Shown: positions 5,872 through 9,062 of the stretch, one piece after another
How the letters are laid out: each line of letters opens with the position of its first letter
Numbering within the stretch: the stretch's first letter is position 1
DNA from: a virus
Taxonomy: Duplodnaviria > Heunggongvirae > Uroviricota > Caudoviricetes
Reading direction: 5' to 3' (one strand)
DNA length: 10,374 bases
Virus record (IMG/VR): IMGVR_UViG_2778261513_000006
Location: 1-10,374 of that record
Notes under the pieces: generated by a model
What the model saw: the letters and a program-made list of their open reading frames with translations, nothing else
Told to the model about the DNA's origin: nothing
The model's database searches: none
Translations under genes and position numbers: made by a program

Positions 5872-7413
5872 TCAAGAGCCAGCTTGCTCTAATCGTTCAA
5901 CGATATGGTTGATCTCGCTCAAGCCTGCGAGCCTGACGATCTCAGATGAACGTATTTTGGGGAATGAGTCACGGATATGATGTGCAAAAAGGAAAACTGC
6001 ACTTGATGGTGTTTGGTTTCTAACTACAGCTTCTCGCAGTACCTCATGTACAGGTTTTGAGTATTCCTTGCAAGAAGATAGCAGATACTCGAATTCCTCA
6101 AATGATATGCAGAAAATGTTCTCATCAGGTATTTGATATTCTTCTGAATGCCTATCTCGGATTTTTTTCATTTCGATGTTAGCATAGGATTTATTTAGAA
6201 ATGTACCATTTCCAAGGAATAAATTTTTATAAGTAAGACATAAAATGTAGGACTCTTTTTTAAAAGAAAAATTTTGGTTACCTTTTTTAATTAGCTCTCT
6301 ATTTACTGAGTGTGCTTGTTCTATAGTTTTTAATACGGAGCTTTTTATATTGGCAGAAATATCCCCTGGTCGTAGTGTAACCATTCCCTTTTGGTTTATC
6401 TCAACACCTTTAGCATCGATGAAAATGTTAGCTTCATCATGAGGTAGTAGAAAATCTACAACTTTATTCTCTTGAGGTAGATATTCTTTTAAATTTCCTT
6501 CAGCAATATAAGCAATTCCACTTTCATCTAATAGCTGGTTGACTGCATTTTCGAAAACTCGCCCAAATTTGTCCATGAACGATTCTGCATCATCTCTGCG
6601 AAGCAAATCATATATAAAGGTTTGTATACTGGTCGAAGTTAGCTGCGTATGTATTTGGTGATAATTTCCTTCGAATTTGATGAAAGGTTTTTCTAAGAAA
6701 GGCGATGGAGCATAATATTCTACTAAAGGTGTCTCATTATCTTTTGTACAGCAAAACCGAGCTAGTTCTTCGTAAGGGATAGATATAGTATTCAGAAATT
6801 TCTCGATTGTATCTTTAGGTATTACGGAGTAAAGAGCTGCGAAAGAATCTATTGTTATTTTCTTTACTGGTGCTTGTAAGGTAACGAGTGATACTAACAC
6901 AAATGATAGTTTTAGAAAATCGTTTATATCAACATCAGTAAGTTCTTTGAATCTACGCTTGATTCTATTGTTGTCATCTAAGGAAGAAAACAAGAAAACT
7001 TGTCTGCTAATTGTATTTAAAGCATCTAATCTTTGATAAATACCTTGTTGATATAACGTATTTCTAAGGAAAAAGTTAATCCCTTTGTCTATATTTTCCA
7101 GACCAGTTGGAATTATACTTAGTTCCTCATATGCTCGTTGTAGCAACCTGACAGCACCAGGTCTGTCAATATGTTTAAATTTCCGTTTTTTACCCAGCGC
7201 ACTGGCGGACCATTTAATGCATAAATTCACAACCCATGGTAGGTGTTGTAACATTTCAAGCTGATTGTTAAATTTCTGGAGGTTATAATCAAGGCAATGT
7301 GTTATAAACTCGTTTGGATTGACGCTTTGAATACTTGCTTTTACCGCATTTAATCTGAGTTGGATAACTGCATCGGAAACTGATTTCAATCTTTTCATCG
7401 TTAAATTTACCAT
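5872..7413 (-). CDS. Hypothetical 513-aa prophage cargo protein with a PD-(D/E)xK-like nuclease motif; candidate anti-phage defence or abortive-infection effector
   Basis: Uninterrupted 1542-nt ORF. Start ATG (7413-7411) overlaps the int stop (sequence ATGGTAA on the - strand). Sampled 60-nt lines are roughly 23-35% GC by hand count, versus about 55% in a sampled line of int. Motif E288/E297 ... VVD320FLLP ... IFID333-A-K335G matches the E...(P)D...(D/E)xK pattern of restriction-endonuclease-like folds; codons checked at 6454-6456 (D320) and 6409-6417 (D333-A-K335). No Walker A motif seen. N-terminal 280 aa and C-terminal 170 aa have no features I can assign. Confidence 0.85.
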   Translation of the reverse strand: MVNLTMKRLKSVSDAVIQLRLNAVKASIQSVNPNEFITHCLDYNLQKFNNQLEMLQHLPWVVNLCIKWSASALGKKRKFKHIDRPGAVRLLQRAYEELSIIPTGLENIDKGINFFLRNTLYQQGIYQRLDALNTISRQVFLFSSLDDNNRIKRRFKELTDVDINDFLKLSFVLVSLVTLQAPVKKITIDSFAALYSVIPKDTIEKFLNTISIPYEELARFCCTKDNETPLVEYYAPSPFLEKPFIKFEGNYHQIHTQLTSTSIQTFIYDLLRRDDAESFMDKFGRVFENAVNQLLDESGIAYIAEGNLKEYLPQENKVVDFLLPHDEANIFIDAKGVEINQKGMVTLRPGDISANIKSSVLKTIEQAHSVNRELIKKGNQNFSFKKESYILCLTYKNLFLGNGTFLNKSYANIEMKKIRDRHSEEYQIPDENIFCISFEEFEYLLSSCKEYSKPVHEVLREAVVRNQTPSSAVFLFAHHIRDSFPKIRSSEIVRLAGLSEINHIVERLEQAGS

Positions 7414-8426
7414 TTTAAATTAAACAGTGGGTTTTTTGTTACCGCATCTTCTAGGTGGTCAGGGGAAAAGTGGGCATAAATCATCGTCATTTTTATATCC
7501 ACATGGCCCAGAATATCGCGTAGTACCAGTATGTTTCCGCCGTTCATCATAAAATGGCTGGCGAATGTATGACGTAATACATGGGTGCATTGCCCCTCCG
7601 GAAGTTCAATACCGGCCCGCTTTACTGCACGCTCAAAGGCTTTTCTGCATGGCGTGAATAACTTCCCTCTGTGCTTGGGGAGTTCGTCATATAGTTCCTG
7701 TGATATCGGTACTGTTCTGTTTTTCTTACCTTTTGTCTTTATATAAGTAATTCGGTATTTCGATATTTGGTGGCCATGCAGGTTTTCGGCTTCGCTCCAA
7801 CGTGCGCCGGTAGCCAAACATATTTTGGCAATCATTAATAAGCTGGGGCTTTGAGATTCAGCACATGCAGCCAACAGGCGCTTGATTTCGTCCATGGAAA
7901 GAAAAGCCAGCTCACCTTCGGCAATTTTGAAGGTTGGAAGTCCTGCCAGCGGGTTTGGTGCTGACCAGTGTCCTAGTTTTTTTAATGTACCGAACACCGA
8001 TGATAGATTGCGCTGTTCGAGGTTTACCGTGCGGGGCTTAACGGGCGACATAAGCGTCCCATCTTCATTTCGTACTTCACCTTTTAACCGTGCTTCGCGG
8101 TATTTCGTAAAGTCACCGGCTGTCAGTTCTGAGGCGATGGGGTCGCCTAGACCATTACAGATAATTCTAAGTTTCGCCATGAGGCGCTTGGGGTCTGCGA
8201 GTGTCTGACCATACAGGGAATACCAAAGCTCAATTAATTCTGATAGGTGTCGCCGATCATCCTTTTCTCCTAACCACGGTTTTTTGTTCACTTCTTCCAT
8301 TGTGAAGCTTTCAAACGCAATGGCTTCGCCTTTGGTAGCAAATTGCTTACGCACGCGCTTACCATTGCGTCCATTGGGATAGCACTCACACAACCATTTT
8401 CCGTTCGGCTGTTTTCTGATGGTCAT
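7407..8426 (-). CDS. int: Tyrosine site-specific integrase, P2/186 phage integrase family
   Basis: 339-aa ORF. N-terminus MTIRKQPNGKW...GRNGKRVRKQF resembles the P2-type Int arm-binding N-terminus as I recall it. Catalytic-domain motifs are present: LATGARWSEAENL (box I Arg), HVLRHTFASHFMMNGG (H-x-x-R) and ILGHVDIKMTMIYAHF (catalytic Tyr). ATG at 8424-8426 lies 3 nt after the cI stop. Confidence 0.95.
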   Translation of the reverse strand: MTIRKQPNGKWLCECYPNGRNGKRVRKQFATKGEAIAFESFTMEEVNKKPWLGEKDDRRHLSELIELWYSLYGQTLADPKRLMAKLRIICNGLGDPIASELTAGDFTKYREARLKGEVRNEDGTLMSPVKPRTVNLEQRNLSSVFGTLKKLGHWSAPNPLAGLPTFKIAEGELAFLSMDEIKRLLAACAESQSPSLLMIAKICLATGARWSEAENLHGHQISKYRITYIKTKGKKNRTVPISQELYDELPKHRGKLFTPCRKAFERAVKRAGIELPEGQCTHVLRHTFASHFMMNGGNILVLRDILGHVDIKMTMIYAHFSPDHLEDAVTKNPLFNLKW

Positions 8427-8429
8427 AAG

Positions 8430-9062
8430 TTAGAGGTTCTTGATTACTTTGACTGCACGTCCTACGACTTCCACATCATCTACAGAACATTCAAATGAAG
8501 TGTCATCTTGGTTAACTACTATTTTGTTTCCGGGTATGCGCGCAATTTTAACGATGCTTTTAACTCCGTCCATATCGACTAACCAGAAGCCATTACTGAC
8601 TTGTTTAACGGACGTATCCACTACAAAGCTATTATTAGCTGTTTTAACAAATAAAGCGTTGGATGAGTCACCATCGAGCAGGCTGCTATCAAGAAGAATT
8701 TCATCACTTGGCTGCAGTTCGCCGTTCTTCAGTTCAACACGTTTGATGCTAGGAGCAACGATCTTAGAAAGTGGTCTTACAGTGACAGGAGGTTCATTTT
8801 TGAGATTTGTTTCTTCGTTCTCACACGCATACATATCTCCTTGACCAGTAGCCAGCCATAGAAGGGAAGCTCCTGTTTCAAGGGCACATTGAATTACCCA
8901 TTCGGCAGGAAAGCTATCCCTTAAGTATCTGTTAGCCATAGTGCTTTTTGATACTTCCAGATGTTCGCAGAGCTGCTGTCGTGAGCTGAAGTTGTAAGCC
9001 TTAATAAGCCTGTTAATTGCATCGCGCCCACCACTATCATTTCCCGCCTTTATTAAACTCAT
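8430..9062 (-). CDS. cI: CI-like immunity repressor (helix-turn-helix N-terminal domain; 186 CI-type architecture)
   Basis: The track ORF starts at a TTG at 9066-9068; the in-frame ATG at 9060-9062 with AAGAGG 7 nt upstream is the more likely start (210 aa, MSLIKAG...). HTH-like segment SSRQQLCEHLEVSKSTMANRYLRD. Located immediately upstream of int on the same strand and divergent from the rightward early operon. Family assignment is by synteny and architecture, not a verified alignment. Confidence 0.8.
   Translation of the reverse strand: MSLIKAGNDSGGRDAINRLIKAYNFSSRQQLCEHLEVSKSTMANRYLRDSFPAEWVIQCALETGASLLWLATGQGDMYACENEETNLKNEPPVTVRPLSKIVAPSIKRVELKNGELQPSDEILLDSSLLDGDSSNALFVKTANNSFVVDTSVKQVSNGFWLVDMDGVKSIVKIARIPGNKIVVNQDDTSFECSVDDVEVVGRAVKVIKNL

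Follow-up and report, generated by a model that had tools for sequence, protein, structure and literature searches.

The window, by which we mean the whole 10,374-nucleotide (nt) stretch of viral DNA analyzed (Caudoviricetes; positions 1 to 10,374 of IMG/VR record IMGVR_UViG_2778261513_000006), contains three consecutive genes on its minus strand: the immunity repressor gene cI (8430–9062), the integrase gene int (7407–8426) and a cargo gene, gapS1 (5872–7398), which together are likely to form one leftward operon expressed in the lysogen. The repressor of 210 amino acids (aa) matches the Pfam families Phage_CI_repr (PF07022; E-value in the 1e-33 range) and Phage_CI_C (PF16452; 1.5e-40), a helix-turn-helix plus CI_C architecture, and the Prokaryotic Genome Annotation Pipeline (PGAP) annotates the same 633-nt gene. 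Int is a tyrosine integrase of 339 aa with the Pfam domains Int_N and Phage_integrase. The genes on the opposite strand form the rightward set apl-cII-fil, where Pfam detects the Fil protein of phage 186 as well as CII (CP76). Identity to the 186 counterparts is 54% for Int (from residue 1 on), 69% for CII and 30% for CI (over 193 aa). By these domain matches and identities the locus belongs to a heteroimmune phage 186-type (Peduoviridae) prophage; it is the int-proximal end of that prophage, which is integrated at ssrA.

The cargo is a defense gene, as the first-pass annotation had supposed. The NCBIfam model NF047931 (GapS1) matches residues 24–479 with 401.6 bits against a cutoff of 320 and covers the complete profile (1–455 of 455); scans of the cargo against Pfam and PADLOC-2023 gave no match, leaving NCBIfam as the sole recognizer. 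In RefSeq/PGAP the identical gene carries the name gapS1 in a pair of E. coli genomes. Read from the ATG at 7398, the product is identical in 507 of 508 residues to EJP5250929.1, one of three GAPS1 homologs from E. coli that, once cloned, defended this species against diverse coliphages (Mahata et al., bioRxiv 10.1101/2023.03.28.534373). By its sequence the cargo is GapS1, a known anti-phage protein with a sensor and a PD-(D/E)xK nuclease fold.

The Vibrio GAPS1 is a single-protein PD-(D/E)xK system that responds to the T7 capsid protein with dormancy and in which D313 and K328 are essential; the capsid trigger and the dormancy were demonstrated for the Vibrio protein only (10.1101/2023.03.28.534373). 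This protein, encoded on VPaI-6 of Vibrio parahaemolyticus, belongs to the same family (NF047931) as the window cargo, and the catalytic D...D-x-K is conserved between them. In an alignment of 17 homologs reaching down to 28% identity, D320, D333, K335 and E338 (513-aa numbering) are invariant, and the D-to-K spacing of 15 residues equals that of the published D313/K328 pair, as expected of a C-terminal PD-(D/E)xK phosphodiesterase domain with its catalytic Asp and Lys. The vehicles differ, as GAPS1 lies in a Gamma-Mobile-Trio island and the window gene in the slot of a 186-type prophage; prophages are not mentioned in Mahata et al. (10.1101/2023.03.28.534373). The published tests relied on an arabinose promoter and the ribosome-binding site of a vector, and an endogenous homolog in E. 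coli ZH142-A protected without inducer (10.1101/2023.03.28.534373). The ZH142-A homolog (WP_194242909.1, GY639_RS21140) was found neither among the listed cluster members nor in the complete genomes. By blastn, gapS1 is detectable in just 18 of 5,426 complete E. coli genomes, only two of which carry the window's allele. GapS1 homologs are frequent in P2-like phages of Klebsiella, which account for 16 of 17 phage-database matches.

The three genes abut closely. At the cI/int junction (8424–8432, minus strand; TAA-CTT-ATG) the sequence reads ...AAC CTC TAA (8432–8430), CTT, ATG (8426–8424), which bears out the 3-nt distance between cI stop and int start reported earlier. The int/cargo junction (7396–7413, minus strand) reads ATG(7413–7411)-G-TAA(7409–7407)-ATTTAACG-ATG(7398–7396). 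The first-pass annotation placed the cargo start in an ATGGTAA overlap with the int stop, and this overlap exists: the int stop (7409–7407) lies inside it, and the ATG at 7413–7411 opens the cargo frame (7413–5872, minus strand; 513 aa). This ATG is, however, probably not where translation begins.

The second in-frame ATG (7398–7396) lies 15 nt beyond the first one and 8 nt past the int stop, and is the start that PGAP assigns to the gene of an identical locus in E. coli (508 aa). Close homologs all start at this position in the alignment (MK[KRQ]L[KN]SVSD...), and the experimentally tested clone begins with atgAAAAGATTGAAATCAG, which corresponds to the window ATG 7398. In an ungapped alignment with the related prophage L023, the TAA of the window is matched by GAA; the L023 int gene runs four codons further, and its TGA overlaps the conserved ATG in a classical ATGA arrangement. 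The int frame of the window ends ...TTA AAA TGG TAA, with the upstream ATG made up of the third base of the Lys codon and the TG of the Trp codon, and these Lys-Trp codons (AAA TGG) are also found in alleles with unrelated cargos. ATG 7413 is ruled out as a conserved start by the homolog starts, the L023 alignment and the tested clone. The start used for gapS1 is most likely ATG 7398, hence a stop-8 nt-start arrangement, and the homolog starts, the L023 alignment and the Lys-Trp codons next to unrelated cargos indicate that the ATGGTAA overlap is probably incidental.

Upstream of cI we found the elements expected of a 186-type genetic switch. Promoters were sought with a standard scan (spacers of 16–18 nt) and additionally with a lenient scan. 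The promoter scan identified a pR-like early lytic promoter in the cI-apl intergenic region (9074–9102, plus strand; TTGACG-17 nt-TAATAT), facing a pL-like lysogenic promoter candidate from the lenient scan (9169–9197, minus strand; TTGAAA-17 nt-CAGTAT), whose transcript is predicted to begin near 9163. The position of this candidate relative to the apl ATG is exactly that of 186 pL (TTGCGA-17-CATGAT). A putative equivalent of pE, the CII-activated promoter for establishment that drives the leftward operon, lies at 9417–9481 (minus strand). This region has 83% column identity with positions 23377–23481 of 186, which include the annotated pE and CII site, and its function is assigned by homology; an inverted repeat for CII binding, ATGTTTG...CAAACA(C), overlaps the cII start. 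With pR and pL predicted to face each other between cI and apl, and pE predicted at the apl/cII border, the layout matches that of 186, where a CII-dependent pE, facing pR and pL and a rightward apl-cII-fil set are likewise present. Aligned to 186 at the nucleotide level, the switch region is informative for promoter positions alone, as the two phages are heteroimmune.

A custom terminator scan of the minus strand from 9200 to 5450 revealed a single canonical hairpin with U-tract, and it lies beyond the cargo. This first intrinsic terminator past pL (5547–5574, minus strand) consists of AAGCCCAC-AGAT-GUGGGCUU followed by UUUCGUU, has a fold z-score of −4.1 and is located in host DNA. No canonical intrinsic terminator was found between pL and the cargo stop (minus strand, 9200–5575); a weak, irregular hairpin with a U-tract is present at 7115–7068 inside gapS1. 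The transcript proposed earlier to span 9062 to 5872 should instead run from ~9163 to ~5548.

The arrangement was compared across 85 loci, comprising 80 viral contigs (selected for an integrase at least 83% identical), phage 186, three E. coli loci and the window. The cI-int spacing was −1, +1, +2 or +3 nt in all of the 84 loci where it could be measured. In 54 of the 85 loci a cargo on the same strand adjoins int, with its nearest start −17 to +26 nt from the int stop and a spacing of −4 (an ATGA overlap) as the commonest. These cargos fall into seven protein families and 44 clusters at 90% identity, with 45 distinct junction sequences. Chance adjacency of cI, int and cargo is ruled out by the spacing across 84 loci and the 45 distinct junctions. 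The slot is empty in 17 loci, where the int stop is directly followed by the arm-type repeats, while five have an open reading frame (ORF) on the opposite strand (the fifth of these, L056, is an empty site) and nine contigs end before the slot can be read.

Cargos of the slot include RES-like proteins, membrane proteins, a dCTP-deaminase-like protein, an SMEK/Aga-type protein and GapS1. In the isolated phage Cartapus (L099, 1658–2863) the slot gene is annotated as 'putative RES protein, NAD+ binding domain' and follows after a 9-nt gap. Five further GapS1 clusters (45–58% identity), from Klebsiella, Salmonella, E. coli and Enterobacter hosts, all show the order cI-int-gapS1 in 186-type prophages with gaps of −4 to +28 nt; a metagenome homolog of 28% identity has a different genomic context. 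In the Gegevirus-type prophage carried by Klebsiella pneumoniae ST258, ST512 and ST437 strains (NC_049448), the order cI-int-gapS1 comes with an ATGA overlap. An apparent int-cargo fusion in L007 and L008 (int '848 aa') was an artefact of extension from the tblastn end, as a scan from the start gives an int of 337 aa.

The most common slot cargo belongs to a diverse family of ~400 aa found in 21 loci (including L009, L017, L026 and L028) and the second most common to a family of ~350 aa with an N-terminal membrane segment; neither has a Pfam or PADLOC match. In a Salmonella locus (L089) a gene with an AbiTii domain (5867–6787) lies ~300 nt after gapS1 on the same strand, giving a two-gene cargo.

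The alleles also reveal the borders of the exchanged segment. Int is conserved through ...HLEDAVTKNPL and then has a tail of 3–20 residues that varies with the cargo (loci L002–L084; 7407–7430 in the window), while the Int of empty alleles ends HNLNW(H/N/K)R. As the tail co-varies with the cargo, each cassette swap rewrites the end of Int. On the other side, homology to empty prophages resumes 13 nt beyond the gapS1 stop. The cassette carries ~8–20 nt upstream of the start and 13 nt downstream of the ORF; it is essentially the ORF alone, which leaves no possibility of a cargo-borne promoter.

Past the gapS1 stop the order is 13 nt, two direct AAATTGGCG repeats, the P arm, an ssrA fragment and host DNA. 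The repeats (5840–5859, minus strand) are Int arm-type sites, comparable to the 186 arm-type consensus YAYCGCCAYTY, and are the same repeats that directly follow the int stop in the 17 empty loci. The fragment, 5705–5748 (minus strand), is the 3′ part of ssrA (transfer-messenger RNA, tmRNA) and represents the attachment (att) core at the prophage end (Rfam tmRNA, partial, 25.6 bits, E 1.2e-7). It is identical to the corresponding block in related loci. ARAGORN found no tRNA and no complete tmRNA gene in the window, where the att core appears solely as a sub-threshold Rfam fragment.

The first-pass annotation read cI, int and the cargo as one leftward unit with the cargo translated from the lysogenic transcript. 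The 186-type switch, the lack of a terminator, the cassette borders and the abutment seen across loci all support this indirectly, and we consider it likely, from these comparisons, that cI-int-gapS1 is the three-cistron operon of a 186-type prophage and is expressed in the lysogen. What we observed are the identities of the genes, the geometry of their junctions, the lack of terminators and of strong promoters, the borders of the cassette and the conserved arrangement; from these we infer how the promoters are used, that the genes are co-transcribed, how translation starts and that expression is specific to the lysogen, as described below.

In a lysogen, CI would shut pR and thereby relieve interference on the facing pL (~9197–9169). 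A leftward mRNA of ~3.6 kb (~9163–5548) would then run from pL through cI, int, gapS1, the Int arm sites and the ssrA fragment to the hairpin in host DNA. After infection, CII-activated pE (~9481–9417) would drive the same cI-int-gapS1 operon, and after induction pR activity together with Apl would lower its expression. Ribosomes would load at the Shine-Dalgarno sequence (SD) of cI, and int and gapS1 would be translated by reinitiation or by SD-independent loading at the A/U-rich junctions. Either route would keep GapS1, an effector with a nuclease fold that is potentially toxic, at a low and constitutive level. If GapS1 behaves like published family members, it would be triggered by the capsid protein of an incoming phage and arrest growth.

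Phage 186 itself provides the closest precedent. In its record (NC_001317), pL and pE are the annotated promoters of a 'lysogenic operon' in which orf69 follows int at a distance of 14 nt and whose terminator is predicted to lie beyond attP; both promoters express CI and integrase (PMC8538670). In P2 the Pc operon likewise expresses C and Int (PMC3936717). Like the window, the 186 lysogenic operon consists of cI, int, an extra ORF, arm sites, a tRNA-type 3′ fragment and a terminator, and the cI/int junction is tight in both (−1 nt in 186, +3 nt in the window). Besides immunity, the two differ in integration site (ssrA in the window, ileY in 186) and in the third cistron, which is a 508-aa defense protein in the window and the 83-aa orf69 product in 186. 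Furthermore, orf69 has a strong SD (GGAGG, −10 kcal/mol) while gapS1 has none.

In phage lambda, the exclusion genes rexA and rexB are placed on the repressor maintenance transcript (cI-rexA-rexB, from PRM) and are made in the lysogen. The proteins are unrelated to those of the window, no integrase gene lies between the lambda repressor and defense genes, and rexB also has a promoter of its own. The transcript that maintains the dormancy of the prophage very probably supplies GapS1 as well, a sensible and ordinary arrangement with clear precedents.

Several observations weigh against the operon reading. The pL candidate matches the consensus in 8 of 12 positions only, and the standard scan did not call it. 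A weak lenient-scan site, GTAACA-19 nt-TAAAAT (7442–7412), lies directly before gapS1. With 35% GC, compared with 46% in int, the cargo is AT-rich, and H-NS or Rho might therefore reduce read-through. Some relatives have a genuine SD before the cargo, such as GGAG in a Klebsiella allele. The junction RNAs (121 nt) are unstructured and A/U-rich, folding no better than shuffled sequences (z-scores of +0.74 and +1.34), and gapS1 translation need therefore not depend on int translation. Literature searches turned up no data on transcripts, transcription starts or proteins of this lysogen or its relatives. In a Salmonella prophage transcriptome (PMC7067206), which did not cover Fels-2, the repressor and integrase of a P2-like prophage were transcribed at a low level.

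Finally, four loci (L011, L012, L014 and L084) carry in the slot a dCTP-deaminase defense gene of 577–585 aa on the opposite strand, convergent with int; the member scanned, from L011, has a PADLOC dCTPase match of 487 bits. The distance between its stop and that of int is 13 nt in L011 and L012 and ~380 nt in L014 and L084. Being on the opposite strand, this gene must have its own promoter, and the slot thus does not force use of the operon. The dCTP-deaminase cargo cannot use the lysogenic operon and would meet transcription from pL head-on.

The alternative that fares best accepts co-transcription of the cistrons and differs in how ribosomes reach gapS1. SD strength was measured as anti-SD duplex energy, for which the operon-wide background mean is −1.9 kcal/mol. 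Among the three genes cI alone has an SD (AGAGG, −6.5 kcal/mol); the values are −0.7 kcal/mol for int, +1.5 for the cargo ATG at 7413 and −2.8 for the ATG at 7398, and the earlier statement that no clear SD precedes the cargo is upheld. The geometry is of the coupling type, with spacings of 3 nt at cI/int and 8 nt or −7 nt at int/gapS1 (depending on the start) and no SD at the downstream starts. Translational coupling from int to gapS1 is plausible. Ribosomes may instead load on gapS1 independently at the A/U-rich junction, as suggested by its unstructured RNA, by the own SD in 12 of the 45 junctions of relatives with the same arrangement (threshold −5 kcal/mol or better; weak or absent in the other 33), and by the tested clone, functional from ATG 7398 with a vector ribosome-binding site. 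Neither candidate start of gapS1 has an SD, however, and spacings of 8 or −7 nt as well as the ATGA overlaps in 7 of the relatives' 45 junctions are typical of termination-reinitiation. We regard independent loading as a tentative possibility, with somewhat less than an even chance of being right.

A promoter of its own in the 3′ end of int, independent of pL and pE, is improbable as the main source of gapS1 expression, though a weak internal promoter could add to it. The earlier claim that there is no room for a cargo promoter stands as far as the standard scan goes, which was blank on the minus strand from 8545 to 7039, with the weak lenient-scan candidate at 7442–7412 as a caveat. This site matches the consensus in 9 of 12 positions, and AT-rich horizontally acquired DNA often holds promoter-like sequences, several of which occur in the cargo. 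Yet its 19-nt spacer is outside the standard range and it would give a leader of only ~5–8 nt. Its −35 element falls within conserved int codons that loci with unrelated cargos share, and the −10 region differs in each. Promoter-like matches in the region are at chance level (12 versus 10.3 expected in the standard scan), and the cassette contributes just the few nucleotides upstream of the start given above. Two antisense promoter-like sites within gapS1 (7148–7175 and 7226–7254, plus strand; 9/12 match), typical of AT-rich acquired DNA, point to int.

Still less probable is that gapS1 is largely silent in the stable lysogen through polarity or H-NS/Rho and made mainly in a pE burst or upon another signal, as its low GC content, its distal position without an SD and the weak hairpin at 7115–7068 might suggest, because a silent defense gene would not stay intact in the slot across divergent alleles (45–100%) and the endogenous ZH142-A homolog, whatever its genomic context, protects without inducer.

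On the operon reading, the wiring suggested here as likely is that prophage defense genes without regulatory DNA of their own borrow the repressor/integrase message. Defense strength should then track the lysogenic promoter, and expression should drop on prophage induction. Cloning with a 'native promoter' from the intergenic DNA would fail as there is no promoter there. The slot would also explain where the majority of GapS1 genes in enterobacteria are located, those of epidemic Klebsiella clones among them, as all five further clusters examined lie in it.

Whether this holds more widely we consider an even call: the int-att slot of 186-type prophages (relatives of Eganvirus, Felsduovirus, Elveevirus and Gegevirus) may serve generally as a promoter-less site for the expression of ORF-only defense cassettes, which are swapped between the last int codons and the arm-type sites, rewrite the Int tail and rely on a CI-maintained promoter with mostly weak or absent ribosome-binding sites. 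If so, the dose of each cassette would be low and tied to the lysogenic state, and the slot would be functionally integron-like without attC. The exchange of cassettes would most likely proceed by homologous recombination between conserved int and the attP arms.

The likeness to integron cassettes is a functional one, in that ORF-sized units without a promoter sit beside a tyrosine recombinase gene and are served by an upstream resident promoter. Unlike integrons, the window has no attC-type element and its cassettes lie downstream of int in the same orientation. An integron-like attC is ruled out, as the distance from the cargo stop to the arm repeats is just 13 nt. Int scores 71.8 bits against the integron-integrase model (cutoff 265) and is not an integron integrase by this measure.

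A variable accessory gene between int and att, within the element, is what defines the P2-like hotspot. In the passages searched of a recent survey (Nucleic Acids Research 2026, PMC13586616), the P2-like int-att interval is given as a minor defense hotspot with 3% of P2 defense systems; this is the same location as that of the window cargo, and those passages do not address the expression of slot genes. Rousset 2022 is likewise silent on how genes between int and att are expressed. Each part of the picture was known before, be it the lysogenic operon of 186, the GapS1 family or the hotspot between int and att in P2, and the principle is old, as lambda rexAB and 186 orf69 illustrate. What is only modestly new is the slot of promoter-less, ORF-only cassettes that overwrite the C-terminal tail of the integrase.

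In the ssrA fragment of the window, six bases (CTCCAC) of the terminal ...CAGCTCCACCA seen in L036 are missing, which marks the fragment as a decayed duplicate of the attachment core. In the flanking host DNA, a YpjA/EhaD-type AIDA autotransporter gene on the plus strand abuts the prophage end with its 3′ end. This gene is split into a passenger ORF (2158–5187) and a 108-aa β-barrel fragment (5216–5542) and is probably a pseudogene. Further out, a short fragment of a resolvase (Pin-like) gene is present at 1760–1948, and an AT-rich ORF (33% GC) with DUF5507 and DUF5508 domains occupies 1–1374 and runs to the window edge. The gene order of the window appears to differ from that of K-12 (ypjA-pinH-ypjC).

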